A stretch of DNA of 64,000 nucleotides from Candidatus Uhrbacteria bacterium CG10_big_fil_rev_8_21_14_0_10_48_11 (GCA_002793855.1 PFET01000009.1:21749-85748); one strand, 5' to 3'; counted from the first letter of the stretch, positions 7,688 to 53,824 are shown. Program-made: numbers and translations. The notes: a model not told the origin generated them from the letters alone.

Positions 7688-8243
7688 AACGCAGAGGTAC
7701 CTCCTTGCAAACCGTATACCTAAGCCCTTCGGACCCAAGGTCGCTGCGGTAAAGATTAACTTTTGTTGCCTGCCACGTGGGTGGCGCCAAGTTGGCATCT
7801 TGTGAAATTTTTGATTCTGAAATGCTTTGCTGTTCTTTTAACCTTCCTACTGTAACGTGAGGAATCCATGTTTTACTGTCATAGCCAAAATGGGCATTGT
7901 TGAGTTCATTCTTAAGCAAGGTATGCAGTTTTCTAAAAGCACCGCTTACGTCATTTACTCCGCAAGTAACCACTCGGGCATTGACAGCGCTTGGAAAACA
8001 CACTAGCGAACCTAGAGCTAATGCAAAATTATCAGCTTCTGAGCCAACGGTAGCGGTTATCCTGCAGAGGGTAGCAAGTCCCTCATCGCTTACTGCCGGA
8101 AAGAAAAAAAGAGTACTATGAATATGCTCCCTTCCCACAATTCGAAATTGAGGGTTACTTTGTAAAAGTTGACGACCAACTGTCTGAATATACTCCTTAA
8201 CCGCATCTGGCACGGATATTGCTATAAAGTATCTAGATGGCAT
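7677..8243 (-). CDS. 2H phosphoesterase (ThpR/LigT-like RNA 2',3'-cyclic phosphodiesterase).
   Basis: Two H-x-T/S-x motifs sit in the expected spacing: HIHSTLFF and HVTVGRL. The start is taken at MPSRYFIAI. Confidence 0.6.
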   Translation of the reverse strand: MPSRYFIAISVPDAVKEYIQTVGRQLLQSNPQFRIVGREHIHSTLFFFPAVSDEGLATLCRITATVGSEADNFALALGSLVCFPSAVNARVVTCGVNDVSGAFRKLHTLLKNELNNAHFGYDSKTWIPHVTVGRLKEQQSISESKISQDANLAPPTWQATKVNLYRSDLGSEGLRYTVCKEVPLRYAP

Positions 8244-23144: not shown

Positions 23145-23972
23145 TTACTCTTTAGTAGCTTTCTTTACGTTCTTTTTCTCCAATGCCTCCTCCTTTTCTG
23201 AAGTTTCTTCGCTGACCGTTTCGCTAACTTCCTGCACCTCTTCTTCTGTATCAGTATCAGCTACCAGCGTTTCAACCTCCATTTCGTTCACCTTACCAAC
23301 AGCGGCAAATTGAGCAACTAGAACTTTCGTGGCGTCCTTTACCGCCTCTTCTGGCGTCAACGTTGCATCCGTCTCAATGTTCATAAGCAATCGGTCGTAG
23401 TTGATCATCTGTCCTACTCGTGCGCTCTCTACAATAAAAGAAACTCTGCGTACTGGGGAGAAGAAAGAATCTACGGCAATCGTACCAATTTCTCTACCAG
23501 CCGCATCGCCTGTTTCTGTCATTTGATATCCTCGCCCCTTGGCTACCCAAATATCCATTTCAATTGCAGCATCTTTAGCCGTAAGCGTAGCAATGGTTAA
23601 TTCCGGATTAACAATTTCTACGTCGCTATTTTTATCAATATCTTTTGCCGTCACTGCTTTTTCTCCCTTGGCAGCTAGATGCAACTTAATTGGTTCATCG
23701 CTAAAAACTCGCATACGTAGCTCTTTGAGGTTCATTATAATTTGCAGCATATCTTCTGCAACTTTTGGTAACGCCGCAAATTCATGCGGCGCACCGGCAA
23801 TTTTCACGGCCGTAACTGCTGCACCCGGCAGTGACGAAAGCAGCACCCTGCGCAAGGCGTTGCCAACCGTCGTACCATACCCAGGATAAAGCGGCTCTAC
23901 TATTAAACGACCGCCTGTGCTTGTTTCGCCGGCTTCAAAAGTAACAACTGAAGGAAGGTTGATGTCCAACAT
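23145..23972 (-). CDS. rpoA: DNA-directed RNA polymerase alpha subunit. It has the N-terminal domain plus an acidic tail, and no alpha-CTD.
   Basis: The NTD is conserved (TTVGNALRRVLLSSLPGAAVTAVKIAGAPHEF). The last about 45 aa are acidic and low-complexity (EEEVQEVSETVSEETSEKEEALEKK). There is no helix-hairpin-helix CTD. Confidence 0.9.
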   Translation of the reverse strand: MLDINLPSVVTFEAGETSTGGRLIVEPLYPGYGTTVGNALRRVLLSSLPGAAVTAVKIAGAPHEFAALPKVAEDMLQIIMNLKELRMRVFSDEPIKLHLAAKGEKAVTAKDIDKNSDVEIVNPELTIATLTAKDAAIEMDIWVAKGRGYQMTETGDAAGREIGTIAVDSFFSPVRRVSFIVESARVGQMINYDRLLMNIETDATLTPEEAVKDATKVLVAQFAAVGKVNEMEVETLVADTDTEEEVQEVSETVSEETSEKEEALEKKNVKKATKE

Positions 23973-26681: not shown

Positions 26682-28607
26682 CTACGATACCGTAGCTCTA
26701 ATTCTACGAATTCCTCGCGAAACCGCTTCCTCTTTCTTAATCTTTACCTTCCCCACTTGCGCTGTGTGCGCCACATGAGGACCGCCACATACTTCTTTAC
26801 TAAAATCGCCAACTGTGTACACCTTCACTTTTTCTCCGTAACGATCTTCAAACAACCCCAAAGCGCCGAGTTTCTCCGCCTCGGCAAAGGTCATTTCTTT
26901 CCATGAAACAGGCAAATCAGCTTCAACGGCACCGTTTACTTCACGTTCTATTGCTTCGAGCTGCTCTGACGTTACTTTTTCATTGTGCGAAAAATCAAAT
27001 CGAAGTCTATCGCGAGTTATGTTTGAGCCTTTTTGGAATACGTGCTTACCAAGTACTCTACGAAGTGACTCGTGCAAAAGGTGAGTAGCAGTATGCAAAC
27101 GAGTGCATTCCCATGAATCGTCAGCAAGTCCGCCATGAAATTTTTTTATCTCCCCGCCTTTAGAGAGTAGCTGATGCTGCTCGAATTCTTGCTTAAACTC
27201 TTCAAGTATTTTCTCTCTGTCAAAAAAATTTTCGGCATTTTCAAGCCCTAATTCCGGTAAAATAACACGTTCTACTTCTTCTAAACTTAACTCTACTGGA
27301 AAACCATAGGTCGCATACATTGTAAACAAATCACGACCAGTTAACCGCTTTCCTGCAGTTAAAATAGTGTCGTTCACAATTTTACGCAGCTCCCGCTCAC
27401 CTCGAACCAAAGTCTGGCGAAACTTTTGTTCTTCCGCGCCGATAGCTTCAGCTATTAGCTGCTGGCGCTTAACCAAGTACGGATAAACTTCTTCATACGC
27501 TTGCACAACCGGCCTTACCAATCGATGTAAGGTGTTAGGCTCCATTGCCAACATGTCCGCGTGTCGCACCACGCGCCGCAAGAGACGTCGAACCACATAT
27601 CCTTGCTCTTTATTGGACGGTTCCGCACCATCGCCTATCAAAAAAACGCTTGCGCGAATATGATCGGCAATTACCCGAAAGGACCACTTGAGCGCAGGGG
27701 CACAGTTAGCGTAAGATTGCCCCGATAGCTGTTCTATCTGTTGAACAGTGAAGTGCAAACCTTCAACGGTCGAAAACACATCGGGATTATTGTTAGCAGC
27801 CGCGGTCAATCGTTCTAGCCCACCTCCAAAATCGACATTTCTTTGCGGAAGCGGATCAAACCCGGTTTTTGTTCTTTGGTATTCCATAAAAACCGAATTG
27901 CCAATCTCCATAAAACGGCCACAGTCGCAATTTGGATGACAAAACGCTCCATAGGCAGGATCGTGTTTGATTTCAGTAAATTCGTAAAAGATTTCACTAT
28001 CAGGTCCTCCGGGTTCACCCTCTGGCATTTTGTCAGGCAACCCAACTCTGCTCCACCAATTTTTTGACGCATCGTAATAAAAAATTCTTCCCCCTTTCAT
28101 GCCATTGCGAGAACCTTCCTCAATGGAACCAATAACGACATCTTTCGCGTCGATTCCTTTTTCTTTAAAAAGGCTTTTCCATAGAGCAACAGACTCGTCG
28201 TCTCGCGGAATACTATTTTCTTCACTGCCGGAAAACACAGTAACATAGAGATGCTTCGGATCTATGCCAAGCTTCTCTGTCAAAAAAACAAAGCACCATG
28301 GAAGTTGTTCAGCTTTAAAATAGTCTCCAAGTGACCAGTTGCCGAGCATTTCAAAAAAAGTGGTGTGACGATTGTCCCCCACCTCCTCCATATCTTCCGC
28401 GCGAAAACATTTTTGCGAATCAGCCAACCGCTTCCCTTCCGGATGCTGCTCTCCAAGAAGATACGGTATTAACACCTGCATTCCCGAACCGGTAAATAGT
28501 GTGGTAGGGTCGTTGTCTGGGATGAGTAACCCAGAAGCAATAACTCGATGCTCCAAATCAGCAAAATAGGAAAGATATTTTTTTCTGATTTCGTTTGCTG
28601 TCATAGT
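26682..28607 (-). CDS. alaS: Alanine--tRNA ligase, short form that ends after the editing domain, with no C-Ala domain.
   Basis: The class II core is present: FTGSGMQ...RHTTFFEMLGNWSLGDYFK. Editing-domain motifs HTATHLLH and CGGPHV are present. It is 641 aa from MTANEIRKKY. Confidence 0.85.
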   Translation of the reverse strand, partial: TMTANEIRKKYLSYFADLEHRVIASGLLIPDNDPTTLFTGSGMQVLIPYLLGEQHPEGKRLADSQKCFRAEDMEEVGDNRHTTFFEMLGNWSLGDYFKAEQLPWCFVFLTEKLGIDPKHLYVTVFSGSEENSIPRDDESVALWKSLFKEKGIDAKDVVIGSIEEGSRNGMKGGRIFYYDASKNWWSRVGLPDKMPEGEPGGPDSEIFYEFTEIKHDPAYGAFCHPNCDCGRFMEIGNSVFMEYQRTKTGFDPLPQRNVDFGGGLERLTAAANNNPDVFSTVEGLHFTVQQIEQLSGQSYANCAPALKWSFRVIADHIRASVFLIGDGAEPSNKEQGYVVRRLLRRVVRHADMLAMEPNTLHRLVRPVVQAYEEVYPYLVKRQQLIAEAIGAEEQKFRQTLVRGERELRKIVNDTILTAGKRLTGRDLFTMYATYGFPVELSLEEVERVILPELGLENAENFFDREKILEEFKQEFEQHQLLSKGGEIKKFHGGLADDSWECTRLHTATHLLHESLRRVLGKHVFQKGSNITRDRLRFDFSHNEKVTSEQLEAIEREVNGAVEADLPVSWKEMTFAEAEKLGALGLFEDRYGEKVKVYTVGDFSKEVCGGPHVAHTAQVGKVKIKKEEAVSRGIRRIRATVS

Positions 28608-28657
28608 ATTGCTAGTATATTGACAATTCTTTACCCTGACAAGATGGGTAAAAAACA

Positions 28658-29374
28658 TTGTATACTAAAAGCATGCCAGAACGAATTAATAAATTTATAG
28701 CGGCTCGAAGTCAATGGTCGCGCCGACAAGCAGACGAATTGATTGCTCGAGGTTTAGTAACCGTAAATGGAACGCCTGTAACCCCTGGTGCGACTGTCAC
28801 TGATGCCGATACGGTTACGGTCAATGGGATGACCATTTCTGCCCCGGCTGCGTTGCTCTATCTCATGCTTAATAAACCAATCGGCTATATTACCACGACT
28901 GATCGACGTATGTCCGACAATGTACTCGATCTTGTCCCTTCGACCCAAAGACTTTTTCCTGTTGGGCGTCTCGATGTGTTGTCCTCTGGATTACTACTAC
29001 TGACTAATGACGGCGAGCTCACGAACCGACTAACCCATCCTCGCTTTGAGCACGAAAAGGAGTATGTGGTTGAGGTCGATAAAACACTTACTGAGGACAA
29101 ACTTGATGTACTGCGACACGGTATTCGTTTACGCGATAAACTAACTTTACCAGCTAAAGTACGGCGACTTACCGACCGCGGATTCAGTATCGCTATCAGA
29201 GAGGGTAAAAATAGACAAATTAGAAGGATGTGTGAGTATGTTGGATATAACGTAATAAATCTACGCAGAACCAGAGTGCTTTCACTCTCTCTGGGCAACC
29301 TAACGGTTGGCCGCTGGCGCTATCTGTCCGCTGAAGAGATAACACACCTTCGCCGCGACACAGGACTGCTTTAG
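28658..29374 (+). CDS. RsuA/RluB-family rRNA pseudouridine synthase with an S4 domain.
   Basis: S4 motif INKFIAARSQWSRRQADELIARGLVTVNG and catalytic GRLDVLSSGLLLLTNDGEL. A later start at MPERINKF (28673) is possible. Confidence 0.75.
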   Translation: MYTKSMPERINKFIAARSQWSRRQADELIARGLVTVNGTPVTPGATVTDADTVTVNGMTISAPAALLYLMLNKPIGYITTTDRRMSDNVLDLVPSTQRLFPVGRLDVLSSGLLLLTNDGELTNRLTHPRFEHEKEYVVEVDKTLTEDKLDVLRHGIRLRDKLTLPAKVRRLTDRGFSIAIREGKNRQIRRMCEYVGYNVINLRRTRVLSLSLGNLTVGRWRYLSAEEITHLRRDTGLL

Positions 29375-30735: not shown

Positions 30736-32550
30736 CTAACTTAACGTAATCGTTTGGCCTGGTTGCACGATACTTCCCTTTGAGGTATTTTGTTCATTTG
30801 TTTCTCTTGCACTTTTCAGATGCTCATCGCCTTGCTTTTTTTCTACAAATGGTTCAGCTTCTTTTTGTTTAACCTCATCGTCACTTTTATTTTCTATTGC
30901 AACTACGTTATTGATCACCAGAGGTATTTTCTCTTTTACGACGGCTGGTTTACTTGCTGGAACCGCACCCTGTCTGCCTTTCGCTCGCTCACTGCGTATG
31001 CGACTGAGGCACTCTTTGCAGTAAACAGGGCGTTTTCCATCTGGCTTAAAAGACAGCTTAGTAGGCTTACCGCACTCATTACAAACCGCATCATAGCTTA
31101 ACACGTTCTTTACTGGTTCGCTGGCTAATAACTGTTTCGCCTCAGACTGAGTTGCCGTCTTTGGCACTGCTGTTTTGTGGCTAGTAACAACTTGCGCACT
31201 TCTAGATCGTTCTGTTCTCGGAGGCGCGGAACTGGCAGCTTTGTGCAAATCTACGGCTTCTTGTTCGAGGGTACTTGCCCAGCGCGAAATCTTGTCTTCG
31301 ATAATTTCTCGCTCTTTTGCGTACCGCTCTCTAGACACACGAATAACTTTTTCACGATTACCGTAATTATTCGCTACCGGCTTAAGCGTATTTGCGGAAA
31401 ATGGCGTTGAGGCAACGCCATCAATCATTAACTTAAGGTAAATCTGCCACTTTGCTAGGTTAACCAAATCTTCTTCAGTGAAATAAGGGCTAAACTCTTT
31501 AACCAACAACTCCGCGTCAGTAGCGCCTACACGAAAGCATACAATCGTACCAACGTTACCAAAAACGGCAGCCTGCACTTCCTCGTCTAACTGTTCGACG
31601 TACTGATGTGCGATAATAAGGTTGAGGCGGTACTTACGGGCCTCTGACAAAATATTTGCAAACGACTCGGTGGCAAAGTTTTGAAATTCGTCGACATAAA
31701 GATAAAAATCTTTTCGCTCTTCTTCTGGCGTATCAATACGACCCATAGCTGCCAATTGAATTTGCGTAATCATCATTGCTCCCAGTAGAGCAGAAGTATC
31801 TTCTCCAATTCTTCCTTTTGATAAATTCAAAATAAGAATTTTTTGATTATCCATGATGTCACGAATATCAATAGAAGACTTTACCTGTCCCACAACATTG
31901 CGAATGAGAGCATTGGACAAAAACTGCCCAACTTTATTCTGAATTGGCGCAATAGCTTCCGCCTGAAAACGATCTGGATACTTTGAATATTCGTCTACCC
32001 AAAAACTTCTCACGACTGGATCCTGAATTTTTTCAATGACGCGTTTACGGTACGCTTTGTCCGTCAAAATGCGCAGTACACCAAGTAATGTTGATCCTGG
32101 ATAATCGAGTAAGGCGAGAATGGCATTCCGAAGCACGTACTCAAGTCGCGGTCCCCAAGAATCTGCCCAAATCTTTTTAAACACACCTACCAGTCCAGAA
32201 GCGATAAGATGCCGCACTTCGGGATTAACAGATTCTAAAATATTAAAAGCGATGGGAAAATTTAAATCTGCGGGGTTGAAATACACCACGTCATTTACCC
32301 TATTTGAAGGTATGAGCGGTAGTGTAGCTTCGGCCAGCTCACCGTGCGGATCAATAACCGCAATGCCGTTACCCGCCATAATGTCTGAATACACCATCTG
32401 CTTCAAAAGTTCAGACTTGCCCATACCGGTTTTACCGATAATGTACATGTGGCGACGCCGATCATCCCGTCGAATACCAAAAAGGCGGCACTTATCTCGG
32501 TAGTTCGTTTCAGCAAAAAAAGTTATATCTTGGTTGTTTGTGTTTAGCAT
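30736..32550 (-). CDS. Soluble P-loop ATPase related to the TraG/VirD4/TraD coupling-protein family. It has no N-terminal TM segment and carries a C-terminal Zn ribbon.
   Basis: Walker A IIGKTGMGKS is followed by VIDPHGEL. Walker B and the family signature read YLYVDEFQNFATES...ARKYRLNLIIAHQYVEQLDEEVQAAVFGNVGTIVCFRVGATDAELLVKEFS (compare the TraG-D_C pattern DEFxNL...Q...QL...N.gt.i.f). The C-terminal zinc ribbon is CNECGKPTKLSFKPDGKRPVYCKEC, followed by a Lys/Glu-rich tail. Confidence 0.6.
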   Translation of the reverse strand: MLNTNNQDITFFAETNYRDKCRLFGIRRDDRRRHMYIIGKTGMGKSELLKQMVYSDIMAGNGIAVIDPHGELAEATLPLIPSNRVNDVVYFNPADLNFPIAFNILESVNPEVRHLIASGLVGVFKKIWADSWGPRLEYVLRNAILALLDYPGSTLLGVLRILTDKAYRKRVIEKIQDPVVRSFWVDEYSKYPDRFQAEAIAPIQNKVGQFLSNALIRNVVGQVKSSIDIRDIMDNQKILILNLSKGRIGEDTSALLGAMMITQIQLAAMGRIDTPEEERKDFYLYVDEFQNFATESFANILSEARKYRLNLIIAHQYVEQLDEEVQAAVFGNVGTIVCFRVGATDAELLVKEFSPYFTEEDLVNLAKWQIYLKLMIDGVASTPFSANTLKPVANNYGNREKVIRVSRERYAKEREIIEDKISRWASTLEQEAVDLHKAASSAPPRTERSRSAQVVTSHKTAVPKTATQSEAKQLLASEPVKNVLSYDAVCNECGKPTKLSFKPDGKRPVYCKECLSRIRSERAKGRQGAVPASKPAVVKEKIPLVINNVVAIENKSDDEVKQKEAEPFVEKKQGDEHLKSARETNEQNTSKGSIVQPGQTITLS

Positions 32551-32556
32551 AACCTT

Positions 32557-33981
32557 CTAAGCTGTCGGTAAATCTGCGGGTGGTTTTGGATTTACCTCTC
32601 CTTCCTGCCGCTTCGTCTCACTGGGGTAATTAGTGCCAATTTCGCTCGCGTAGGGCAAAGTAACTGGTGGGGAGGTGTGCTTAAAGTCCGTCTTTTGAAC
32701 TGCTGCTCTAATGGGGGTCGTTTCAGTCATCATTGGAAAATGCCAAAGTGTGGCCAACTCTTCGATATTCATAACATACGGTTCTCGGCCAAACTCAAAC
32801 TCACGCTCTTTGTATCGATGCATCAGTTTTCTGCGCTTCAAATTTTTTCGCCAATCGGTAAAAAAGTAGTTAGCATGAACGCCGACGTGTTTTGTGTCAG
32901 GCTTAAGAGAATTTAAGTTTTCGGTGTTAAATTGCTTAATGGCGCCAATGAACGCCTCACGTCCATGCTGTACATTAAACCGTTCTTTGGTGGCAATATA
33001 AACAAATCGAATTTTTGTTTCGTAGCCTATCTTTTTGACCTTCATTGACATCGCCTCAATACGATCCCTGTCGTAGGGCGAAAGTAGCAATAACCCGCCA
33101 AGTGAGCCTTTCTCCTGATGCCCCTCTTCGAGTACACCCGAACCACCACCAAATTGATTCGACGCGGACTGCCCAAACTTTTGAATTTCTCCTGCGATGC
33201 TAGACAGTAGCGAGCCCGTCTCCTTTGCGTGACCCATAGTATCCTTAATTTTATGAATCACTTCTTTCTTCCACGAGTTTGTTATAGGCAAAATAATAAT
33301 CTGTAGCCACAGCTGTTCACCCGGACCAAGTTTACCCATTGTTTCTATAACAGCGTTCATCGGGTCTTTCATCTCTTTACTCATTATGTGCTCAAACTCT
33401 ACGTAGGTACGAATAGGTAGCGCCTCATTCTCTACATAAACGACCTCTGTACCGTACATATCATAGCGCTCGTCGGGATACACCGTCGGATACCCCTCCA
33501 CATAATCTTCTACTTCAGTAATTTGAGCGTCTGGATACTGACTATACACCGCCGCTTCCACTAAGTCTCGGAACTTGTCAACCGTTCTAATCAAAAACTG
33601 AACGTATCCTTCAATACTTACAATTTCTAAAGAGAAGGACTCCTGCACGGCACCATACCAATATTTTTCCAGCATTGTTTTTGTGCCATGTGCACCAGCA
33701 AGATGAGCAAAAATATTTTCAACTGCTTTTGGTGATTGCACGTTATCTCGTGGCACATCTATCGCCAGAAGTACCCAATGACACTTTTGTCTTTGGTACT
33801 CTCTCTTAATGTAGCGCATCCAAAAAAACCATCCGAGCCGCACAAAAGCAATAACAAAAATAATCCACCCACCGTGAATCACCAAATAGAAAAAAAGTTC
33901 CCAGCTAGCAATGAGCGGAGAAGCGCCGTATATGGCTGCATGCAGTAACTCAGCAAAACGTGACGGTGTTGCAACGTCCAT
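32557..33981 (-). CDS. Membrane protein with 2 N-terminal TM helices and an uncharacterised soluble domain of about 400 aa.
   Basis: Hydrophobic helices LIASWELFFYLVIHGGWIIFVIAFV and WFFW lie near the N-terminus. The rest has no motif I recognise. It is wedged between the regulator and the ATPase with gaps of 3 nt and 6 nt. Confidence 0.45.
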   Translation of the reverse strand: MDVATPSRFAELLHAAIYGASPLIASWELFFYLVIHGGWIIFVIAFVRLGWFFWMRYIKREYQRQKCHWVLLAIDVPRDNVQSPKAVENIFAHLAGAHGTKTMLEKYWYGAVQESFSLEIVSIEGYVQFLIRTVDKFRDLVEAAVYSQYPDAQITEVEDYVEGYPTVYPDERYDMYGTEVVYVENEALPIRTYVEFEHIMSKEMKDPMNAVIETMGKLGPGEQLWLQIIILPITNSWKKEVIHKIKDTMGHAKETGSLLSSIAGEIQKFGQSASNQFGGGSGVLEEGHQEKGSLGGLLLLSPYDRDRIEAMSMKVKKIGYETKIRFVYIATKERFNVQHGREAFIGAIKQFNTENLNSLKPDTKHVGVHANYFFTDWRKNLKRRKLMHRYKEREFEFGREPYVMNIEELATLWHFPMMTETTPIRAAVQKTDFKHTSPPVTLPYASEIGTNYPSETKRQEGEVNPKPPADLPTA

Positions 33982-33984
33982 AGA

Positions 33985-35199
33985 TTAGGCTTGCTGAACA
34001 AGATGGTAATTACCTTCTTTGTCTTTCGTAAACATTGTAGAATTGAGAAGCGCCAAATGAATTGTCTGTTTCTTTACCATTCGTCGTTCAAGTACGGCGC
34101 GTACTATCTGCTCTCGCTTCATACTGCCCTCTTTTTGAAGCAACTCACGAACAACATCAACTACGGTACCTGGCTGGTATCCCCACTCTCTAAGCGCGTA
34201 AAGCCCACGGCCAACAAGAACAAACCGTTTGTCTAAAATGAGTTCGTTATGAACCGATGGCGCCTTGGCAACTTTCGAATCAAAATGCATCGAATTAATT
34301 TTTTCGGTAATCACATTAAAATGTAAGGGCTTTCCGTGATGCCGAAGAATTAAATAAATTTTATCATTCATTCGTCGCGGATGAATGGTTTGCCAAGAAC
34401 GCATCCCCCACTCTCCAAAAATATTCTGCGCAAGCTCACCAGCTGCTGATAAATAGGCGGTCAGGACGCGATTTTCTTCCTCGGTAGTTGGTGGGTCATT
34501 TGTACCCGGAGAGCCAATAAACTCTCTTGCAATATGTACTGGTTCAGCCACTAGTTGTTGACGGCGCTCAAGGTAAAAAGGTTGTTGCCGAAAGCGTTGT
34601 AGAAGATCGCCACGCTCTATCGGGTATCCTACCGTTTTTATTGCTTCCACAAACGATTCTACTGCTCCCTTTAGTAATGCTGTATCAACGCCAGTTAAAA
34701 CATAAATTGGGCGAAGACAAACATCGTCTTCCCGGTATTCAACAAAACCATCAAGTAAATGGTCGAGCAAAAAATGTAGGCAGGCTTTTGTCGAAGCTTC
34801 ATGTTTTTCGTCACCGATCCTTCCTTGCGAGTAATCCAGGAGCTGATCTATAAAAAAAACTGCCTCTAACGCGCCTCCGTAACTACGCAACAGGTATTCT
34901 GTTGTTCTGATGAACAACTTTAGCTCCTCGTTCTTTGCGGAGAGCGCCCGCAATTTGTCTACAGAAGATTTAGCAATTTGACGGATACGTTCTCTGGTAA
35001 CCGATAACTGATCTCCAATCTCTTCCAGCGTTTCTGTTTGACCCCCTTCTGGAATTGCAAATCTGCGACGAACAACATCGGCCTCGCGGTCCGCTAGGGT
35101 GCTAAGCAGATGATTCACTACCGCGACAGGGTCAAACGTACGTATTTCTTCTGCGTGTCGCTGGGCAATTAATTTATCTAAAATACTATACTCTGACAT
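33985..35199 (-). CDS. Putative DNA-binding or transcription protein. It has an N-terminal sigma-70 region-4 helix-turn-helix and a C-terminal HARE-HTH-like winged helix.
   Basis: Residues about 35-85 read LADREADVVRRRFAIPEGGQTETLEEIGDQLSVTRERIRQIAKSSVDKLR, matching sigma-70 region 4.2. Residues about 290-360 read IYLILRHHGKPLHFNVITEKI........ILDKRFVLVGRGLYALREWGY, matching the HARE-HTH pattern of RpoE/delta (Pm.f.ei...DgRF..lg.g.WgLr.W). Confidence 0.55.
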   Translation of the reverse strand: MSEYSILDKLIAQRHAEEIRTFDPVAVVNHLLSTLADREADVVRRRFAIPEGGQTETLEEIGDQLSVTRERIRQIAKSSVDKLRALSAKNEELKLFIRTTEYLLRSYGGALEAVFFIDQLLDYSQGRIGDEKHEASTKACLHFLLDHLLDGFVEYREDDVCLRPIYVLTGVDTALLKGAVESFVEAIKTVGYPIERGDLLQRFRQQPFYLERRQQLVAEPVHIAREFIGSPGTNDPPTTEEENRVLTAYLSAAGELAQNIFGEWGMRSWQTIHPRRMNDKIYLILRHHGKPLHFNVITEKINSMHFDSKVAKAPSVHNELILDKRFVLVGRGLYALREWGYQPGTVVDVVRELLQKEGSMKREQIVRAVLERRMVKKQTIHLALLNSTMFTKDKEGNYHLVQQA

Positions 35200-35266: not shown

Positions 35267-35302
35267 TAAAATTATAATAGCATAAAACGAATAATCTGTC
35301 AA
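35267..35302 (-). promoter_or_regulatory. Near-consensus sigma-70-type promoter for the operon beginning at 35199.
   Basis: The minus strand reads TTGACA (35302-35297), then a 17-nt spacer, then TATTAT (35279-35274). That is about 70 nt upstream of the ATG. Confidence 0.45.
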
Positions 35303-35354: not shown

Positions 35355-36305
35355 TTAGTAACGTGCGATTCGTCGCTTTTCTTTCCAGCTATACCAGCTA
35401 ATCAAAAGTGGCGAAGCTATAAAAATTGAACTGTAGGTACCAACGAAAATACCAATGGTAAGTGCTAGTACGAAATAGTGAATACTTTCTCCACCAAAGA
35501 CCAAAGTAAAAATAAGCACGAGCAATGTCGTAAACGAAGTGTTTATCGATCGACCCATTGTTTCGTTTAAGCTCCGGTTTACAACTCGGGAAAAAGAATC
35601 AGTGGCGCGATGCAAGTTCTCTCTAATACGATCAAATACAACAATGGTATCGTGAACCGAAAATCCAAGTAAGGTCAGTAGTGCAGTAATGAAAAGCACG
35701 TTTACTTCAACACCAAGGTAGTGTCCAAGAATAGAAAAAATACCAACCGTAATAATGGTGTCGTGAAAGAGAGCGATAATGGCCGCCGTTCCAAACTGCC
35801 ATGAGGGTACCGGACGAGAAACCTTTCTGAACGCCCAAGCGATATACAGAATGATTGCCCCCAAAACAGCACTCAATGCAAAAATTGATTTTTGTCGTAG
35901 CTCAGCTCCAATAGTAGGACCGATGGCGGTAAAACGCTCTTCGCTAATACTATCCCCTTTCTCTCCGCCAAATGTTTTCTCTAATGCTGCGAGTAAGGTC
36001 GCGTGATCCTCTTCGCTTAACGCCTTACCTTCTTTGGCGCCTATTCGCAGAGTTGCCCCATTGGTACCAATGGGAGTAATGTCTACGGTTCCAATAGTTT
36101 CTAGTACCGCCGCTGAAATGTCCGCTATCGCTGGACGATTACCAGCAAAGGTAATTTCCATTAACGATCCCCCAGTAAAATCAATACCGTATTTGAGTCC
36201 CCACCCTGGAAGTAAAATAGCCAGCGCGCACAGTAGCACCAAGGTACCCGAAAAGAGGTAGGCAATTCTGCGATAACCAACAATATTTATATTTGTACGT
36301 CTCAT
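35355..36305 (-). CDS. secF: Protein-export membrane protein SecF.
   Basis: It has six TM helices with a SecF periplasmic loop and a 4-nt overlap with secD. Confidence 0.85.
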   Translation of the reverse strand: MRRTNINIVGYRRIAYLFSGTLVLLCALAILLPGWGLKYGIDFTGGSLMEITFAGNRPAIADISAAVLETIGTVDITPIGTNGATLRIGAKEGKALSEEDHATLLAALEKTFGGEKGDSISEERFTAIGPTIGAELRQKSIFALSAVLGAIILYIAWAFRKVSRPVPSWQFGTAAIIALFHDTIITVGIFSILGHYLGVEVNVLFITALLTLLGFSVHDTIVVFDRIRENLHRATDSFSRVVNRSLNETMGRSINTSFTTLLVLIFTLVFGGESIHYFVLALTIGIFVGTYSSIFIASPLLISWYSWKEKRRIARY

Positions 36306-38110
36306 ACTTCGGTCGAATTATTTTTTCGCGCCACGCCATAAAGCCACAGTCGTTTACTTGTACCGTTAGCCACCACAAGCCTTAAGAATGTACGAGTAAC
36401 GATAATCGCGCTAAACATACTTACCAAAATACCAAGAGCGAGCGTCAACGCAAACCCACGAACAACGCTGGTTCCAAACCAGTAAAGAATCGTACAGGTA
36501 AGAAGCGAGGATACATTTGAATCGCGAATGGACGTCCAAGCACGCTGGAAACCAACTTCGATAGCTGATTGTAGCGGCCTTGCCTCAGCAAGCTCTTCCC
36601 TAAGGCGTTCAAAAATAAGCACGTTGGCGTCCACTGCCATACCAATAGAGAGAATAAACCCAGTTACTCCTGCAAGCGTCAACGTTACTGGCCAAAACTT
36701 GAAAAGCGCTAGGGCAATGCTGGCGTACACCAGCAAAGCAAACACCGACAAAAGACCCGGCAAGCGATAGTAAAGAATCATAAACAGTGCAACTAGAAGA
36801 AACCCGATAAACGCCGCTTCTAAACTCTGCTGAACTGCAACGGCGCCAAGCTTAGCCCCGATGGTTTGCTGCGAAACAAGTGCGATTGGTACTGGCAATG
36901 CACCGGCATTCAAACGCTGTGCTAACAGTTTTGCCTCGTCAATAGTGAAGCTTCCAGTAATAACCGCCTCGCCACCAACAATTGCCTGTTGGACTGTTGG
37001 GACACTAATCGGCTGACCATCAAGGAAAATACCAACCGGTTTACCAATATCACGCTGCGTAATTTCTTCAAAAAGTTTCGATCCTTCTGCGTTAAAGCGT
37101 AGCTGCACCTGCGGCTGGTTTGTCTGCTGGGCAAAAACGACCGTTGCTTTATCAAGCTGCTTACCTGATAACTGAGTGTTCTTCCAGCCAGCGTTTGGGT
37201 CATTTGGCAAAAAATCTCGGGCCGACGGAGCACTGATAAGAATATGACGAGCGTGAACCTCTTGAACCCCGTCGCTGTTGGTTCTCTCGTCAAGACGTTG
37301 TATCACATGATGCCCATAAGCGGTTTTGATAGGCGTTTGGGTAATCTGATTTTCTTTGAGTTGGTTAAAGAGTGCGTCACCGAATTCTGCCACAACGCTG
37401 GCTTTCGTGATGTAGTCAAGGTCACCGCCATTGTCTTTCGAGCCGGGATCATCAGAAAGCTCTTTCGCAATTTTTGCAAAATCTTCTCCGGCATTGAGGC
37501 GCTTAATAACCGATTCGGCTTTACGCTTGGCAGCCGCCTGTCCGTCATCAATCTGTTTTTGCTGGGCTGGCGTAATGGTCGGAGCTACCGCATTTTCATC
37601 CTGCTCTTTAAATTCTAGCAATGGCGTCTCACCGATCTGCTTAATGGCATCATCCACGTTCTCTACACCCGCAAGTTCAACCAATACGCGCCACTGGTTC
37701 CCAGAGCGTTCTGTTTGTACCACTGGCTCAGCAACACCAAAGGCGTTCACGCGCCGCTCAATGACGTCACGGACGCCCTCAAGCGCTGAGACCTTATCAC
37801 TGTCAGGAATTTTACTGGTATCCGCGTCATAAAGTAACTGCGTCCCGCCAACAAGATCAAGGCCGAGTCGAAACGGCGTATCGACAAAGTACGGAACGCC
37901 AGCCTTCAATACTCCCCCAACCCAACCCAAACCAGTCGGATACTGCTTAGCACCGAGTTCTGCTAATTTTGGATTTACCGCATCTACCGCCTTATTGTAA
38001 TAAACAGGATAGTTATAAAGTCCCGCAACAATAGTAAGCACGATGATTGCCACGAAGGTCCACCGAACTCGTCCTCGGCGGGTGCGGAAGGTAACGCGTA
38101 CGCCCATCAA
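36302..38110 (-). CDS. secD: Protein-export membrane protein SecD carrying a parvulin-like insertion in the periplasmic P1 region.
   Basis: The SecD N-terminal TM and P1 base (LGLDLVGG) are present, as are the head subdomain (IFLDGQPISVPTVQQAIVGGEAVITGSFTIDEAKLLAQRLNAGALP) and the C-terminal six TM helices. Residues about 175-300 are alignable to parvulin PPIase (see finding). Confidence 0.85.
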   Translation of the reverse strand: MMGVRVTFRTRRGRVRWTFVAIIVLTIVAGLYNYPVYYNKAVDAVNPKLAELGAKQYPTGLGWVGGVLKAGVPYFVDTPFRLGLDLVGGTQLLYDADTSKIPDSDKVSALEGVRDVIERRVNAFGVAEPVVQTERSGNQWRVLVELAGVENVDDAIKQIGETPLLEFKEQDENAVAPTITPAQQKQIDDGQAAAKRKAESVIKRLNAGEDFAKIAKELSDDPGSKDNGGDLDYITKASVVAEFGDALFNQLKENQITQTPIKTAYGHHVIQRLDERTNSDGVQEVHARHILISAPSARDFLPNDPNAGWKNTQLSGKQLDKATVVFAQQTNQPQVQLRFNAEGSKLFEEITQRDIGKPVGIFLDGQPISVPTVQQAIVGGEAVITGSFTIDEAKLLAQRLNAGALPVPIALVSQQTIGAKLGAVAVQQSLEAAFIGFLLVALFMILYYRLPGLLSVFALLVYASIALALFKFWPVTLTLAGVTGFILSIGMAVDANVLIFERLREELAEARPLQSAIEVGFQRAWTSIRDSNVSSLLTCTILYWFGTSVVRGFALTLALGILVSMFSAIIVTRTFLRLVVANGTSKRLWLYGVARKNNSTEV

Positions 38111-49287: not shown

Positions 49288-49323
49288 CACTTGGCAGTTT
49301 TTCTTCCGTACTGTCAAAAAAAA

Positions 49324-49332
49324 TGGTATAGT
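49324..49332 (+). promoter_or_regulatory. Extended -10 element (TGgTATAGT) ending 6 nt before the pilB ATG. This suggests a leaderless pilB transcript.
   Basis: TGGTATAGT lies at 49324-49332 and the ATG at 49339. No Shine-Dalgarno sequence is visible. Confidence 0.3.
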
Positions 49333-49338
49333 AAAACT

Positions 49339-51090
49339 ATGTTTACCGACAAACAGCTGGTAAAAATTATTGATTCCAGTGGCATTTTTTCTGCTCCAGA
49401 TATTAAAAAGTACCAAGGCGAAGCAGACGCTAAAAGACAACCGTTGGAAAATTTCCTACTCGGTAAGCGCCTAATTTCTGAAGATAGCCTTTACGAAAAT
49501 GCTGCCGGCGTATACAGTGTTCCCTTTATAAAACTTAGAGGTAAGCCAATTAGAAAGGACGTTCTCTTCTTGGTACCAGAACCACTTGCCAAACACTACC
49601 AAATCATTGCCTACGATACCGAAGGTGACGATACCATCAAAGTAGTAAGCACTGACCCTGAAAATTTGCAGGCCGTTGAGTTTTTACGCAAAAAAACGGC
49701 CAAAAAGATAGAGCTCTCTTTGACCACTCCTGACGAGTGGCAAGAGCTAATGAAGCAGTACCACAAAAGTCTCCAGGCTGAGTTTAGTGAGCTATCAGCA
49801 AAACCAGGGAAAAAATCTACCACCAAGGCTGGCTCGAAGAAGATTGATAAGGACCTAAAAGAACTTGCCGAAGATCTTCCCGTTATTGGGGTTGTCGATA
49901 CGATTCTGGAGTACGCCATATTTGAAGGCGCGTCGGACATTCACATTGAGCCCACTGAAAAAGATCTTAACGTCCGCTATCGAATTGATGGTGTCTTGAA
50001 GAATGTCATGAACCTTCCCAAAACAATCCAACCCGGCGTGACTGCTCGTATCAAGGTACTCTCTACGCTGAAGCTAGACGAACATCGCCTCCCACAGGAT
50101 GGTCGTTTTAAGATTGAAACGGAAGAATACAGAGTTGCGTTTCGTGTTTCTGTTTTGCCAACATTTGATGGGGAAAAAATTGTATTGCGTCTTCTCGATG
50201 AAGGTAGCCAAATACTGACTCTCGCTCAGCTCGGACTACAACCCAAAGAGCTTGATCTGCTACAGATAAACATAACGAAGCCGCACGGTATGATTCTGGT
50301 TACCGGCCCTACAGGTTCCGGAAAGACGACGACACTCTACACAGTTCTTAACGTGCTGAACAAACCAGAGGTTAACATTTCTACCGTAGAAGATCCCATC
50401 GAGTACCGTATGCAGGGCATTAACCAAAGTCAGGTAAACCCAAAAATAGGTTATACCTTCGCTATGGGCCTACGTGCGTTACTGCGTCAAGACCCAAACA
50501 TTATCATGGTTGGAGAAATTCGAGATTTAGAAACTGCTGAAATCGCCGTCAATGCCGCAATGACCGGTCACCTTCTCCTTTCTACACTGCACACCAATGA
50601 CGCCGTCACGGCAATACCTCGCTTGTTTGATATGGGCATCCCGCCATTCTTGGTGGCCTCCACTACAAATATGGTCATGGCGCAACGATTGGTCCGTCGC
50701 ATCTGTAGCCTCTGCATTTCAAGTTATACGCTAGACAAGGCAGCACTAGATGAACTTAAAAAACAATTCGATCTAGGAGCGATTCTCAATGCATTGGTTC
50801 GTCATGGCAGTGTCGCGAAAAAAACAAAATCTTTTGGTGATCTACTTTTTTACCGAGGTAAAGGTTGTAAACAGTGCGGTGATGACGGCTATCGCGGCCG
50901 CGTTGGCGTCTATGAAATATTAAATATCAGCAAAGAAGTAAATGATGCTATTCTACGAAAAGCGAGCCGTGAAGAGCTCGTAGAGCTTGCCAGAAAACAA
51001 GGAATGACAACTCTCCTTGAGGACGGCTTCCTTAAGGCAAAGGCTGGTATAACCACCATAGAAGAGGTGCTCAGGGTAACCCAAGAATAG
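49339..51090 (+). CDS. pilB: Type IV pilus assembly ATPase (GspE/PilB family).
   Basis: It has a T2SSE N-terminal domain, a GPTGSGKTTT Walker A, Asp and His boxes, and a tetracysteine motif (CSLC...CKQCG). The ORF-track alternative start is the TTG at 49291. Confidence 0.85.
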   Translation: MFTDKQLVKIIDSSGIFSAPDIKKYQGEADAKRQPLENFLLGKRLISEDSLYENAAGVYSVPFIKLRGKPIRKDVLFLVPEPLAKHYQIIAYDTEGDDTIKVVSTDPENLQAVEFLRKKTAKKIELSLTTPDEWQELMKQYHKSLQAEFSELSAKPGKKSTTKAGSKKIDKDLKELAEDLPVIGVVDTILEYAIFEGASDIHIEPTEKDLNVRYRIDGVLKNVMNLPKTIQPGVTARIKVLSTLKLDEHRLPQDGRFKIETEEYRVAFRVSVLPTFDGEKIVLRLLDEGSQILTLAQLGLQPKELDLLQINITKPHGMILVTGPTGSGKTTTLYTVLNVLNKPEVNISTVEDPIEYRMQGINQSQVNPKIGYTFAMGLRALLRQDPNIIMVGEIRDLETAEIAVNAAMTGHLLLSTLHTNDAVTAIPRLFDMGIPPFLVASTTNMVMAQRLVRRICSLCISSYTLDKAALDELKKQFDLGAILNALVRHGSVAKKTKSFGDLLFYRGKGCKQCGDDGYRGRVGVYEILNISKEVNDAILRKASREELVELARKQGMTTLLEDGFLKAKAGITTIEEVLRVTQE

Positions 51091-51091
51091 T

Positions 51092-52213
51092 ATGGCAATA
51101 ACCTACGTAGACGAAAAAACCAACGAGGTTGCTGCGACCCCTGCAACGGAAAAACGATCCCGAAAAATGCCATGGGAAAGCTTGAGCACCAAGCAGGTAC
51201 TATTTTTGACACAACAGTTGCAAATTATGATGCATGCCGGTGTCCCACTAACAAAGACACTTGAAACGTTAAAAGCACAAGCAACTACAAAGTACCTACG
51301 GACACTACTTGAAAGAATAGAGGCTGACGTCGAGCAAGGGAAATCGTTGGCCGATGCCTTGCGTCCTTACGAAAAAGATTTCGGAGAGCTCATGATTAAT
51401 ATGATTGCTGCCGGTGAAGCCAGTGGTCGACTCGACGAAGTACTCGAGCAGCTCTATCTCCAAATGAAAAAAGATAATGAAATTGTTTCGCGCGTGCGTG
51501 GTGCCCTCATTTATCCAGCAATCGTAGTAGCCGCAATGTTTGGTATTGGTACTTTTATGATTGTCTTTGTTGTACCGAAACTTATTGGACTTTTTCAAGA
51601 AGTAAAAGTATCGCTTCCTTTACCGACTCGTATCCTTATTGCCATGAGCGATTTTTTTACCCACCATGGCTTCATCGCGGCCACTTCAATTACAGCTTTT
51701 ATTTTATTGTTTGCGTGGACCATTAGACAACCTTGGGGTAAAAAAGTATGGCACACCATACTACTCCACTCCCCTGTCATAGGAGCAATTATTAAAAAGG
51801 TAAATGTGGCACGTTTCGCAAGGACAGTTAGTTCTTTTTTAAAAACAGATATCCCTGTCGTAAAAACATTAGAAACAACGGCGCACGTCTTGGGAAATGT
51901 TCACTATCAAAATGCTCTTATTGATGCCTCTCAAAAAATAACTAAAGGCATTACCTTGGGAGAAGCACTGCGGCCACATAAAAATCTTTTTAACCCAACT
52001 ATTTTGCAAATGATCTCTGTTGGTGAGCAGGCCGGTAAGCTTGATGATATGCTTGCTGAGGCGGCAAATTTTTACGAAGCAGAAGTGAACCAAACCATGG
52101 AAACGCTTCCTTCGTTGCTCGAACCGATTTTGATGATTTTACTTGGTTTTGGTGTAGGTGGTATGGCGGTAGCCATTATTCTACCTCTGTACACGTTGAC
52201 ACAGGCATTTTAG
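51092..52213 (+). CDS. pilC: Type IV pilus inner-membrane platform protein (GspF/PilC family).
   Basis: Two T2SSF repeats and three TM helices. It abuts pilB. Confidence 0.85.
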   Translation: MAITYVDEKTNEVAATPATEKRSRKMPWESLSTKQVLFLTQQLQIMMHAGVPLTKTLETLKAQATTKYLRTLLERIEADVEQGKSLADALRPYEKDFGELMINMIAAGEASGRLDEVLEQLYLQMKKDNEIVSRVRGALIYPAIVVAAMFGIGTFMIVFVVPKLIGLFQEVKVSLPLPTRILIAMSDFFTHHGFIAATSITAFILLFAWTIRQPWGKKVWHTILLHSPVIGAIIKKVNVARFARTVSSFLKTDIPVVKTLETTAHVLGNVHYQNALIDASQKITKGITLGEALRPHKNLFNPTILQMISVGEQAGKLDDMLAEAANFYEAEVNQTMETLPSLLEPILMILLGFGVGGMAVAIILPLYTLTQAF

Positions 52214-52217
52214 CTAT

Positions 52218-53285
52218 ATGGATTTTTCATTTTCTCTACGAAGCCCAAGACCTCCCTCTGCTTTCGGTCTTGATCTTTCAGACGATACTCTAAAAATTGC
52301 CCAGCTACGTTACCACGGTAAAAAAATTACCGTCGACGTACTAATAGAGAAACGGCTACCCGCAAAAGCAATTGTAGACGGTGAAATAAAAAATATTGAT
52401 GCAGTAAGCGAGGCACTAGCTACTGTTTATGGTGAGCAACGACATAAGCTTATTTCTAGTGCCATTATCGCCCTTCCTGAGGCGCAAACCTTTATTACCA
52501 CTATTACGGTTCCCAAAAAGGGCAATACTGCCTTAAAGCAACTGTTGCAAGAAGCCCTGCCGGAATATCTACCCGACAGTGTTGATAAACTTTATATTGA
52601 CACGCAGACTTTGTCCGAGAACGACACGAGCTGGATTGTACTTGTTGGCGCAGCACCACAAATTTTAGTTGAACCATACTTAGCTATTGCGGAACGTGCT
52701 GGCGTGTCGCCTCTCGTTCTTGATATTGAGCCAATTGCAACGGCAAATGCACTTATCCCCCACGCAGAAACGACGCCCAAAACAAGAGCAATAATAAACC
52801 TAGGACAACGCCGAGGAAATCTTATCCTGCACAGCTCCGGTTCTGTTCTTTTCACTGCTAGCCTCCCTATTTCAGGGGAAGCTGTTACCGAAGAATTAAA
52901 GGAACAACTTAAAATCACGAAAGAGCAAGCAGAAAAAACAAAGCGCTTATGCGGGTTAGACCCTAAAAAATGTGAGGGCGTGCTTCGGCAGGTGCTTGAA
53001 CGCATGGTTCAACAGCTGCTTGAACGCATCGGAGAGAACCAAAAATACTACCGAGACCACTTTGCTGCAGCAACCAAAATTGAGGAAATTATTCTTGCGG
53101 GTGGTGGCGCGCACCTCATCGGGCTTGATACAGTGCTCTCGGATGCCTTGGGTATTCCTGTACGATTAGGTACACTATGGGAAAATGTATCAGTTGAGAC
53201 ACCTCCGGAACTTGAATCAGAGCTTCGCTATGCAACAGTAGTTGGACTAGCAGAAAGAGCTCTCAACGACGAAGCAACGCTATGA
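52218..53285 (+). CDS. pilM: Type IV pilus assembly protein PilM (actin-like ATPase fold).
   Basis: FtsA/PilM-like sequence in its operon position. Confidence 0.8.
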   Translation: MDFSFSLRSPRPPSAFGLDLSDDTLKIAQLRYHGKKITVDVLIEKRLPAKAIVDGEIKNIDAVSEALATVYGEQRHKLISSAIIALPEAQTFITTITVPKKGNTALKQLLQEALPEYLPDSVDKLYIDTQTLSENDTSWIVLVGAAPQILVEPYLAIAERAGVSPLVLDIEPIATANALIPHAETTPKTRAIINLGQRRGNLILHSSGSVLFTASLPISGEAVTEELKEQLKITKEQAEKTKRLCGLDPKKCEGVLRQVLERMVQQLLERIGENQKYYRDHFAAATKIEEIILAGGGAHLIGLDTVLSDALGIPVRLGTLWENVSVETPPELESELRYATVVGLAERALNDEATL

Positions 53286-53824
53286 TACTGACCTTAAACC
53301 TCATCCCAGAATCGATAAAGCAAAGGGTTCGAATGCAACGACTCTACGGTATGCTTAAAACTACACTGGTAGTAACAGCTTTATTCGTACTGGTCATGGG
53401 AATCTTCGTGCTTATCGGCAGACTAATTTTACAACAGCAATTTACGCGCATTGTAAACGAAACAACTCTAATAACGGCAAGCAACCGAAAAGTTGAAGGT
53501 GAGATTAGAGACCTTAACGGTAAAGTAATAACTGCCAAAAAAATTATAACCAGTACAAACCCCTGGGCGGAGTTAGTTTACGAAATAGTATCTATTTTAC
53601 CCAACGAAGTAACCGTACACTCAATTGGTGTTACAGATAAAGGACAAAGTACTATTACTGGTGTCGCTACGACCCGCGACGCGCTTTTGGCATTTAAAGA
53701 TTCTTTAGAAAAATCTCCATTTGCAACTGATATTGCGCTGCCAATTACCGACTTATTGAAACGCGAAGACGCTCCTTTTACCATCACTTTTACAGTAAAA
53801 CTAGATGCGGTTACCAAACGTTAA
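53282..53824 (+). CDS. pilN: PilN-like bitopic membrane protein.
   Basis: One N-terminal TM helix, then a coiled coil and a ferredoxin-like fold region. It overlaps pilM by 4 nt. Confidence 0.6.
   Translation: MILTLNLIPESIKQRVRMQRLYGMLKTTLVVTALFVLVMGIFVLIGRLILQQQFTRIVNETTLITASNRKVEGEIRDLNGKVITAKKIITSTNPWAELVYEIVSILPNEVTVHSIGVTDKGQSTITGVATTRDALLAFKDSLEKSPFATDIALPITDLLKREDAPFTITFTVKLDAVTKR

Follow-up and report, generated by a model that had tools for sequence, protein, structure and literature searches.

The stretch of DNA analyzed here (hereafter the window) comprises 64,000 nucleotides (nt) of Candidatus Uhrbacteria bacterium CG10_big_fil_rev_8_21_14_0_10_48_11 (GCA_002793855.1 PFET01000009.1:21749-85748), which belongs to the candidate phyla radiation (CPR), also called Patescibacteria. 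It harbors, on the minus strand, two adjacent genes that encode a membrane protein of the family DUF8128 (PF26449) and, 6 nt downstream, a soluble P-loop ATPase with a C-terminal zinc ribbon. The ATPase is deposited as PJE75817.1 ("hypothetical protein COV04_02635"), an exact match that stems from a metagenome-assembled genome of Candidatus Uhrbacteria. The two genes probably encode a single type IV coupling protein (T4CP) of the TrwB/VirD4 family in two pieces, likely a membrane motor, with a leaning toward a conserved cellular task; the probability of this reading is put at roughly 0.75. The coordinates of all features are collected in Table 1.

By its sequence, the ATPase is a TrwB/VirD4-family T4CP with intact catalytic residues. 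Three Pfam models match it above their cut-offs: DUF87 (38 bits), TrwB_AAD_bind (PF10412; 36.7 bits, E 2.9e-9), and TraG-D_C (PF12696; 28 bits, E 2.3e-6). The TrwB_AAD_bind match covers amino acids (aa) 30 to 341 and, thus, runs through the helical insertion of the domain. Searching the sequences of the Protein Data Bank (PDB) returns TrwB at 2.8e-9 and DotL at 1.8e-6, as opposed to 0.27 for HerA. The same order is obtained by Foldseek with the AlphaFold2 (AF2) model of the ATPase, where DotL (5e-9), TrwB (2e-8), and Cagbeta (2e-7) precede HerA (1.5e-6 or weaker), and no VirB4 chain occurs among the 50 matches listed. Profile comparison by hhalign aligns the ATPase family with TrwB (residues 117–394) over 264 columns at 94.6% probability (E 6.5e-8), from Walker A via the helical insertion to past Walker B; with VirB4/TrwK, the probability is 1.8% and the alignment is confined to the P-loop. 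Scored against the hidden Markov model (HMM) of the ATPase family, TrwB reaches 32.7 bits, followed by the Embleya VirB4-like ATPase (8.7), PcfC (0.4), FtsK (−1.7), and PrgJ (−2.2). An initial annotation of the locus, made from the sequence alone, had described the protein as TraG/VirD4-like. Pfam taken by itself is ambiguous, but the PDB sequence search, Foldseek, hhalign, and the HMM scores all favor that family.

The architecture of the motor domain follows that of TrwB. Walker A and Walker B, both of which had been pointed out in the initial annotation, do not vary across 27 aligned family members, and neither do R305 and Q316. In the AF2 model, eight helices at aa 110 to 234 are placed between the core strands 88–91 and 238–242, which is where the all-α domain of TrwB is located. 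Since all 19-aa windows of the 604 aa stay below 1.6 on the Kyte–Doolittle scale, with a maximum of 1.03 in the first 60 residues, the ATPase contains no transmembrane (TM) segment, and the missing membrane anchor noted earlier is borne out.

Other P-loop families match the ATPase less well. The HerA models of NCBIfam cover aa 31 to 86 only, with 13 to 14 bits against cut-offs of 800 to 970 (E 0.011–0.027); HerA_C gives no Pfam match on the ATPase, and NurA is not found in the 64-kb window. AAA_10 stays at 18.8 bits under its cut-off of 27.5 and is limited to the P-loop, and FtsK_SpoIIIE (PF01580) stays at 12.7 bits (E 0.085) under its 24-bit cut-off. Among the Pfam models proposed for comparison in the initial annotation, TraG-D_C, TrwB_AAD_bind, and DUF87, hence, lie above and AAA_10 below the cut-off, and neither HerA nor VirB4, which it had named as the outcome speaking against a T4CP, supplies the best profile. 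The PADLOC collection of defence models yields mad8 at 62 bits together with weak HerA matches for the ATPase, and no match for the DUF8128 partner. A HerA/DUF87 identity was rejected because the HerA models cover the P-loop only and T4CP profiles and structures score better; a VirB4 identity was rejected by the hhalign result with TrwK and the HMM score of PrgJ, and an FtsK identity by the Pfam and HMM scores given above. Membership in a defence system was likewise rejected, the mad8 match being generic ATPase similarity in a surrounding of housekeeping genes.

The upstream partner is 100% identical to record P0121, which carries the precomputed annotation PF26449, as do syntenic homologues from two distant genomes. 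Its Kyte–Doolittle windows above 1.6 start at aa 26 to 40, and the AF2 model shows a helix at aa 22 to 66. From the positive-inside rule, we infer a topology in which the domain following the anchor faces the cytoplasm. The AF2 model is of good quality (predicted local distance difference test [pLDDT] 75.5, predicted TM-score 0.70) and consists of a helix through the hydrophobic stretch, an α/β domain, and a disordered tail. When this model is compared with the PDB by Foldseek, the top 13 matches are all R388 TrwK/VirB4 (E 5e-5 to 2e-3), with 390 to 458 aligned columns and a query-normalized TM-score of 0.28 to 0.34. They are followed by an ESX-3 translocon chain, below which small regulatory proteins and a variety of unrelated enzymes appear. 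Structures of T4CPs, HerA, or FtsK are absent among the 50 matches listed, which suggests that the similarity concerns the N-terminal, non-ATPase domain of VirB4. There is no sequence-profile signal from DUF8128 to TrwK, PrgJ, or TrsD, and no match in the PDB sequence search; the link to VirB4 is, hence, one of fold only, and sequence homology with VirB4 N-terminal domains or TrsD finds no support in profile comparisons. The earlier description as a two-TM protein holds insofar as a membrane protein with a hydrophobic stretch is present, but it falls short in that the protein also contains a conserved cytoplasmic domain of about 350 aa and is no mere anchor.

The relation of the two proteins becomes apparent from fused relatives. 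The plasmid-borne proteins closest to the ATPase show 29 to 39% identity across its core. They include WP_331738717.1 of a plasmid of Embleya sp. NBC_00896, a protein of 812 aa whose C-terminal half is homologous to the ATPase core. The gene is flanked on one side by genes for a PrgI-family protein and a VirB4-like ATPase and on the other by those for a relaxase and an NlpC/P60 hydrolase, and this cluster is a genuine Gram-positive-type conjugation cluster. The N-terminal 415 aa of the Embleya protein align weakly but collinearly with the DUF8128 protein of the window. A search with this N-terminal region returns 98 mainly actinobacterial proteins, in which PF26449 is annotated (precomputed) in one chain with PF10412, PF01935, and PF12696; tblastn of the actinobacterial N-terminal domain against plasmids gives three records. 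Single-sequence comparisons are suggestive only (BLASTP E 0.01–0.3, hhalign 6–10%), and the matter was settled by a profile of the fused proteins. Herein, the CPR DUF8128 profile (29–439) aligns with positions 40 to 389 of the fused profile at 95.1% probability (E 3.3e-8), and the CPR ATPase profile (24–424) with positions 400 to 801 at 100% probability (E 2e-61). Because both genes map collinearly onto the halves of the fused protein, the pair in the window is, as far as sequence comparison goes, a genuine split T4CP. The earlier proposal of a split motor with a separate membrane protein is thereby confirmed and strengthened, as the partner and the N-terminal half of fused T4CPs are homologues.

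Fused forms also occur in the CPR. The best 150 matches to the DUF8128 profile among representative genomes are all standalone proteins, a set that is unable to reveal fused forms. A fused DUF8128–T4CP is encoded on a CPR contig at L022:11191-12888 (plus strand; 99.4% and 99.8% probability for the two halves), by an open reading frame (ORF) that lies 5 kb downstream of a split pair on the same contig and runs off the end of the locus. This copy is more divergent, with 148 bits against the ATPase family profile. A single CPR genome can, on this evidence, contain both the conserved split form and a divergent fused form, and such a double occurrence may account for the approximately two T4CP homologues per genome in the survey of PMC12102498.

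C-terminal to its motor domain, the ATPase carries a zinc ribbon, which had been recognized in the initial annotation and is matched above cut-off by the curated models zf_Tbcl_2 of Pfam (PF23477; 50.6 bits, cut-off 27) and TIGR04272 of NCBIfam ("CxxC-x17-CxxC"; 49.1 bits, cut-off 36). The motif CNECGKPTKLSFKPDGKRPVYCKEC extends over aa 490 to 514 (nt 31009–31083) and is the sole one of its family in the window. Its four cysteines are invariant in the 27-member alignment, the ribbon is modeled with a pLDDT of 83 to 86, and 67 of the 77 complete family members possess it, each time with a spacer of exactly 17 residues. For the CxxC-x17-CxxC domain, zinc binding was shown experimentally in small proteins of Methanosarcina (PMC12704099). 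The tail that follows comprises 86 aa with 15 K+R and 13 D+E; in other family members, tails between 19 and 213 aa long occur.

Table 1 Features of the split coupling protein locus and its immediate neighbors, with positions counted from the first letter of the window.
Feature	Position	Strand	Remarks
Soluble T4CP-type ATPase with C-terminal zinc ribbon	30736..32550	−	604 aa, ATG start
ATPase core, aa 24–424	31279..32481	−	Homologous to TrwB and to the C-terminal half of fused DUF8128–T4CPs
Walker A GKTGMGKS, aa 39–46	32413..32436	−	K45 aligned with TrwB K136
All-α insertion, approximately aa 105–235	31846..32238	−	Boundaries approximate; position of the TrwB all-α domain
Walker B YLYVDEF, aa 283–289	31684..31704	−	D287/E288 aligned with TrwB D356/E357
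R305 to Q316, RKYRLNLIIAHQ	31603..31638	−	Aligned with TrwB R375 and Q386
CxxC-x17-CxxC zinc ribbon, aa 486–518	30997..31095	−	Cysteines 490, 493, 511, and 514; PF23477, TIGR04272
Disordered K/E-rich C-terminal tail, aa 519–604	30739..30996	−	pLDDT 27–56, charged composition
DUF8128 (PF26449) membrane protein	32557..33981	−	474 aa; detached N-terminal T4CP half
Hydrophobic anchor, approximately aa 21–57	33811..33921	−	One long or two short TM helices, then basic RYIKREYQRQK
Conserved α/β cytoplasmic domain, aa 67–416	32734..33783	−	AF2 model; ends in the invariant motif NIEELATLWHFP
Sigma70_r4 (aa 31–85) and HARE-HTH (aa 280–339) protein	33985..35199	−	404 aa; Pfam; 3 nt upstream of the DUF8128 gene
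Sigma-70-like promoter match	35274..35302	−	TTGACA, 17-nt spacer, TATTAT plus TG, 11/12 positions; in the 155-nt gap after secF
ORF of 77 aa with C-terminal hydrophobic segment	30500..30733	−	2 nt past the ATPase stop

The pair is a common constituent of CPR genomes. At least 8000 homologues of the ATPase were scored, all at E ≤ 0.001 and well outside what chance would produce, and the best 120 of 8000 are 57 to 84% identical and of the same architecture; those named by organism are from Patescibacteria. The gene order was compared in 82 loci, of which 80 stem from species-representative genomes and two from metagenomic contigs. DUF8128 is encoded immediately upstream of the ATPase in 67 of them and is preceded by a gene for a Sigma70_r4/HARE-HTH protein in 54. 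SecDF is found further upstream in 31 loci, and AlaS and MnmA are found downstream in 21 and 17 loci, respectively, so that the usual order reads SecDF, Sigma70_r4/HARE-HTH, DUF8128, ATPase, and MnmA–AlaS. A soluble motor paired with a separate membrane protein had been called unusual in the initial annotation; it is the norm across the CPR, and the combination of a T4CP devoid of a TM domain with a membrane protein had already been recognized elsewhere.

A different arrangement is found in ten loci (L008, L016, L018, L025, L027, L035, L036, L043, L054, and L058; for example L016:3194-13327). Their order is NrdR–NrdD–NrdG, ATPase, an RNase_T-type exonuclease, a GT2 glycosyltransferase, DivIC, and a DD-carboxypeptidase, and the Nrd and exonuclease neighbors are a suggestive hint of nucleotide metabolism in that clade. 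An old second paralogue in the Nrd context was considered and rejected: the ten loci form a single shallow clade nested in the DUF8128-linked radiation and, hence, represent a lineage-specific relocation.

Stand-alone ATPase cores of approximately 360 to 600 aa exist that share up to 65% identity with the CPR family and possess no DUF8128, TM segment, or ribbon. They were found on a Sulfitobacter plasmid (L003:5986-7173) and on viral contigs of IMG/VR (L089–L095). The Sulfitobacter plasmid is alphaproteobacterial and non-mobilizable, and its core adjoins transposases and a recombinase. A phage-borne element was excluded as an explanation for the CPR genes, as relatives occur on only 7 of 2.9 million viral contigs, in the form of bare cores lacking ribbon and DUF8128. 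The CPR pair is, by all indications of sequence and gene order, vertically inherited chromosomal equipment and no part of a mobile element.

In the window itself, the genes from Sigma70_r4/HARE-HTH to the 77-aa ORF are separated by gaps of 3, 6, and 2 nt. This spacing of the four genes and the promoter match are consistent with one operon, to which the Sigma70_r4/HARE-HTH gene probably belongs together with the pair. The promoter, situated upstream of the Sigma70_r4/HARE-HTH gene, is a match to the consensus only, and the region contains five such matches, which is fewer than the mean of 9.6 in shuffled sequence. For the Sigma70_r4/HARE-HTH protein, two roles are conceivable: it may bind DNA in partnership with the split T4CP, or it may be a transcription factor with no connection to it. 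No homologue of the 77-aa ORF is present in the 82 related loci, and it may therefore be lineage-specific or no gene at all.

A Pfam scan of 47 ORFs of the window, including the non-nested ORFs of at least 150 aa except four short ones, returned housekeeping functions only. Among them are SecA, SecDF, MurB/C/G, FtsW, MraY, ClpB, PriA, GltX, CTP synthase, RpoA, ribosomal proteins, polysaccharide synthesis, and a PilB/C/M/N pilus cluster; VirB4, VirB6, VirB8, and a relaxase were not found in the scan. The pilus cluster is located at 49291–53824 (plus strand), approximately 17 kb from the pair, and encodes a PilB-like T2SSE ATPase with an MshEN domain, PilC, PilM, and PilN. In CPR bacteria, attachment to the host and the uptake of DNA have been linked to type IV pili, which makes the cluster relevant background. 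The SecD homologues of two related loci (L001:2482-4167 and L002:2725-4371) carry internal PpiC-type rotamase Pfam domains, and the SecD of the window (36302–38110, minus strand, 602 aa) apparently shares this insertion. RpoA (23145–23972, minus strand) is 275 aa long and matches only the N-terminal dimerization and insert domains of Pfam at E ≤ 1e-5, the α C-terminal domain seemingly being missing. The alanyl-tRNA synthetase of Escherichia coli has approximately 875 aa. The AlaS ORF of the window (26682–28658, minus strand) has 658 aa, and related called genes in L001 and L002 have 588 to 591 aa and run off the locus ends, so that a short form of AlaS is seemingly common to related loci. Finally, a single ORF at 6458–7798 (minus strand) encodes a WecG/TagA glycosyltransferase domain and, at its C-terminus, a NUDIX hydrolase domain.

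Among known systems, the actinobacterial fused DUF8128–T4CPs closely resemble the pair. They exhibit the same order of TM anchor, DUF8128 with the motif ELAxLxHxP, and T4CP ATPase, with an ATPase core that is 31 to 35% identical; the Embleya protein is annotated as a [quoted passage not shown] They differ by consisting of one polypeptide as opposed to two gene products, by lacking the zinc ribbon, and by residing in a conjugation cluster (PrgI, VirB4, relaxase, and NlpC/P60), whereas the pair is surrounded by housekeeping genes. TrwB of R388 and VirD4 share the RecA-like nucleotide-binding domain with the inserted all-α domain and identical catalytic residues. However, TrwB possesses its own short N-terminal domain of two TM helices, neither DUF8128 nor a ribbon, and is encoded on a plasmid beside a relaxase; the identity amounts to only approximately 19 to 20% in structural alignments.

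With regard to the division into two genes, TraJ and TraI of pIP501 (class iii of Llosa and Alkorta 2017) are similar, as a soluble T4CP ATPase is accompanied by a separately encoded membrane protein proposed for its attachment. In contrast to the DUF8128 protein with its 474 aa, TraI is a small two-TM protein, and the system is plasmid-borne and conjugative; the likeness is one of architecture only. VirB4 proteins are split as well, namely into TrsD and TrsE of pGO1 (trsD–trsE, L096:25886-28602) and into TrsD and VirB4 in Patescibacteria, where the gene of the N-terminal domain likewise lies immediately upstream of that of the ATPase. The Patescibacteria TrsD matches carry the Pfam domain PF11130 (Table S3 of PMC12102498). 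DUF8128 and TrsD show no profile similarity, however, and the ATPase of the window is of the VirD4 type. HerA and FtsK belong to the same P-loop superfamily, and the DUF87 match and the weaker HerA matches in Foldseek reflect this kinship, but only the P-loop matches HerA, FtsK remains below cut-off, and the window contains neither NurA nor another HerA partner.

T4CP homologues of the CPR were surveyed by Quinonero-Coronel et al. 2025 (PMC12102498). They counted 5,713 VirD4-like T4CP homologues in 2,918 of 3,035 Patescibacteria genomes (96%), only 148 of which are located near virB4, and VirB4 in 2,417 of the 3,035 (80%). Relaxases are nearly absent, with 109 in the 3,035 genomes. VirB4-less assemblies, including one Uhrbacteria genome, retain T4CP matches, the distal t4cp of S. 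epibionticum is non-essential, and a possible exaptation of the Patescibacteria T4CPs was raised (PMC12102498). Wang et al. 2023 described an essential type IV secretion system (T4SS) cluster in S. epibionticum that lacks recognizable coupling and relaxase proteins. Since CPR bacteria do not make nucleotides de novo and S. epibionticum can dispense with comEC, another route of acquisition has been proposed in the literature. In the searchable literature, no mention of "DUF8128" was found, and neither were the split architecture, the DUF8128 link, the synteny, the ribbon on these ATPases, or the VirB4-like fold. The existence of the family and its puzzling distribution are already published; new leads are the definition of the unit as two genes, the fused relatives of this unit, and the VirB4-like fold predicted for its N-terminal module.

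In the proposed mechanism, both genes are probably co-translated, given their 6-nt gap. The DUF8128 product would provide the membrane anchor and the cytoplasmic domain, and the ATPase product would provide the motor with its all-α domain, which by analogy to TrwB should assemble into a hexamer. The halves would come together at the cytoplasmic membrane as an ATP-driven ring that receives or translocates a substrate, in the way of the fused relatives in Gram-positive conjugation systems; their docking is suggested by the fusion and the synteny. The ribbon, which is specific to the CPR, and the charged tail would most likely serve as an adaptor to a substrate or partner, probably nucleic acid, in the manner of the variable C-terminal extensions of T4CPs. 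The conserved cellular task could consist in DNA or another nucleic acid being handled at the membrane, with or without a T4SS encoded elsewhere in the CPR genome. Its CPR-wide conservation beside housekeeping genes, at a distance from any secretion system, gives the pair the appearance of a domesticated motor.

This reading has to be weighed against others, among which the least likely is that the ATPase is a HerA/DUF87-type, VirB4-type, or anti-phage defence ATPase whose T4CP motifs are generic P-loop similarity. HerA structures do appear in the Foldseek list of the ATPase, the fold of the partner is VirB4-like, and DUF87 and mad8 score as stated above, yet T4CP structures lead that list, the HerA models are restricted to the P-loop, and hhalign clearly separates TrwB from VirB4. 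Moreover, the fused homologue of Embleya coexists with a separate, genuine VirB4, and neither the lack of a PADLOC match for DUF8128 nor the housekeeping context suggests a defence island, which makes this explanation very improbable. A more serious contender, although it falls somewhat short of even odds, holds that the pair is the working coupling protein of an MPF-FATA-like T4SS of Patescibacteria, encoded distant from virB4 and recruiting protein or DNA that is moved to or from the host cell. It would explain why the fused homologues reside inside conjugative T4SS clusters, and it accords with the presence of VirB4 in 80% of the CPR genomes, in clusters that usually have no T4CP of their own. 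T4CP genes often lie away from virB4 in other systems too (PMC12102498), and T4CPs are able to engage heterologous T4SSs (FEMS review). On the other hand, the prevalence of T4CPs exceeds that of VirB4 and they persist in assemblies devoid of the latter, relaxases are nearly absent, and S. epibionticum can do without its t4cp but not without its T4SS. The identity of 57 to 84% among the best 120 split copies, compared with the 148 bits of the fused CPR copy, additionally suggests a different selective regime.

The pair could also be a T4SS-independent membrane translocase of nucleic acids taken over for a housekeeping role in the CPR, for example the import or processing of foreign DNA or RNA for nucleotide salvage or, similar to FtsK, the handling of chromosomal DNA at the membrane or septum; this is a tentative and, on balance, doubtful explanation. 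It is favored by the pair being near-universal, highly conserved, and vertically inherited among housekeeping genes, by the conserved DNA-binding Sigma70_r4/HARE-HTH neighbor, and by the clade in which the ATPase is encoded between NrdR–NrdD–NrdG and the exonuclease, followed by DivIC. The missing nucleotide synthesis of the CPR and the dispensable comEC fit this role as well. All of this support is contextual, however, and apart from the one or two anchor helices no component of a membrane channel was identified. DNA translocation across membranes by a lone T4CP is not known, and the non-essential t4cp of S. epibionticum speaks against it. There is a slight leaning toward uncoupling from the T4SS because T4CPs are more prevalent than VirB4, the split copy is better conserved than the fused one, the synteny is with housekeeping genes, and the data on S. 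epibionticum point in this direction; none of the four reasons is decisive. The most far-reaching version, namely a domesticated conjugation motor that acts independently of a T4SS as a CPR-wide nucleic-acid machine at the membrane, for example in nucleotide salvage, and in which DUF8128 keeps an ancestral VirB4-like N-terminal domain, is rather unlikely as it stands.

Several observations weigh against the reading as a split coupling protein with a conserved cellular task. One clade of ten loci has no adjacent DUF8128 gene, and the ribbon is missing from 10 of the 77 complete family members, so that neither is strictly required in cis. The AF2 model of the ATPase is mediocre, with a mean pLDDT of 66 and values below 50 for parts of the core after Walker B. 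The excess of T4CPs over VirB4 may partly result from incomplete assemblies, and the T4CP counts of the survey mix split and fused copies. The non-essential t4cp of S. epibionticum may be another copy than the split pair, and the association with SecDF, MnmA, and AlaS may reflect nothing more than a gene order that has been retained.

The CPR/Patescibacteria make up a large share of bacterial diversity, depend on their hosts for nucleotides and building blocks, and are genetically almost uncharacterized. As the split copy is unusually well conserved, the pair likely does something important. With the upstream "hypothetical" membrane protein as the missing N-terminal half, the functional unit would comprise two genes, possibly together with the Sigma70_r4/HARE-HTH protein. 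For comparison, the fused homologues that Actinobacteria encode in conjugation clusters are a tractable counterpart. Whether the motor is coupled to a T4SS or independent of it is now testable in genetically tractable Saccharibacteria. The VirB4-like fold of DUF8128, if true, would bear on the divergence of the VirB4 and VirD4 ATPases and would link the two ATPase families of T4SSs.

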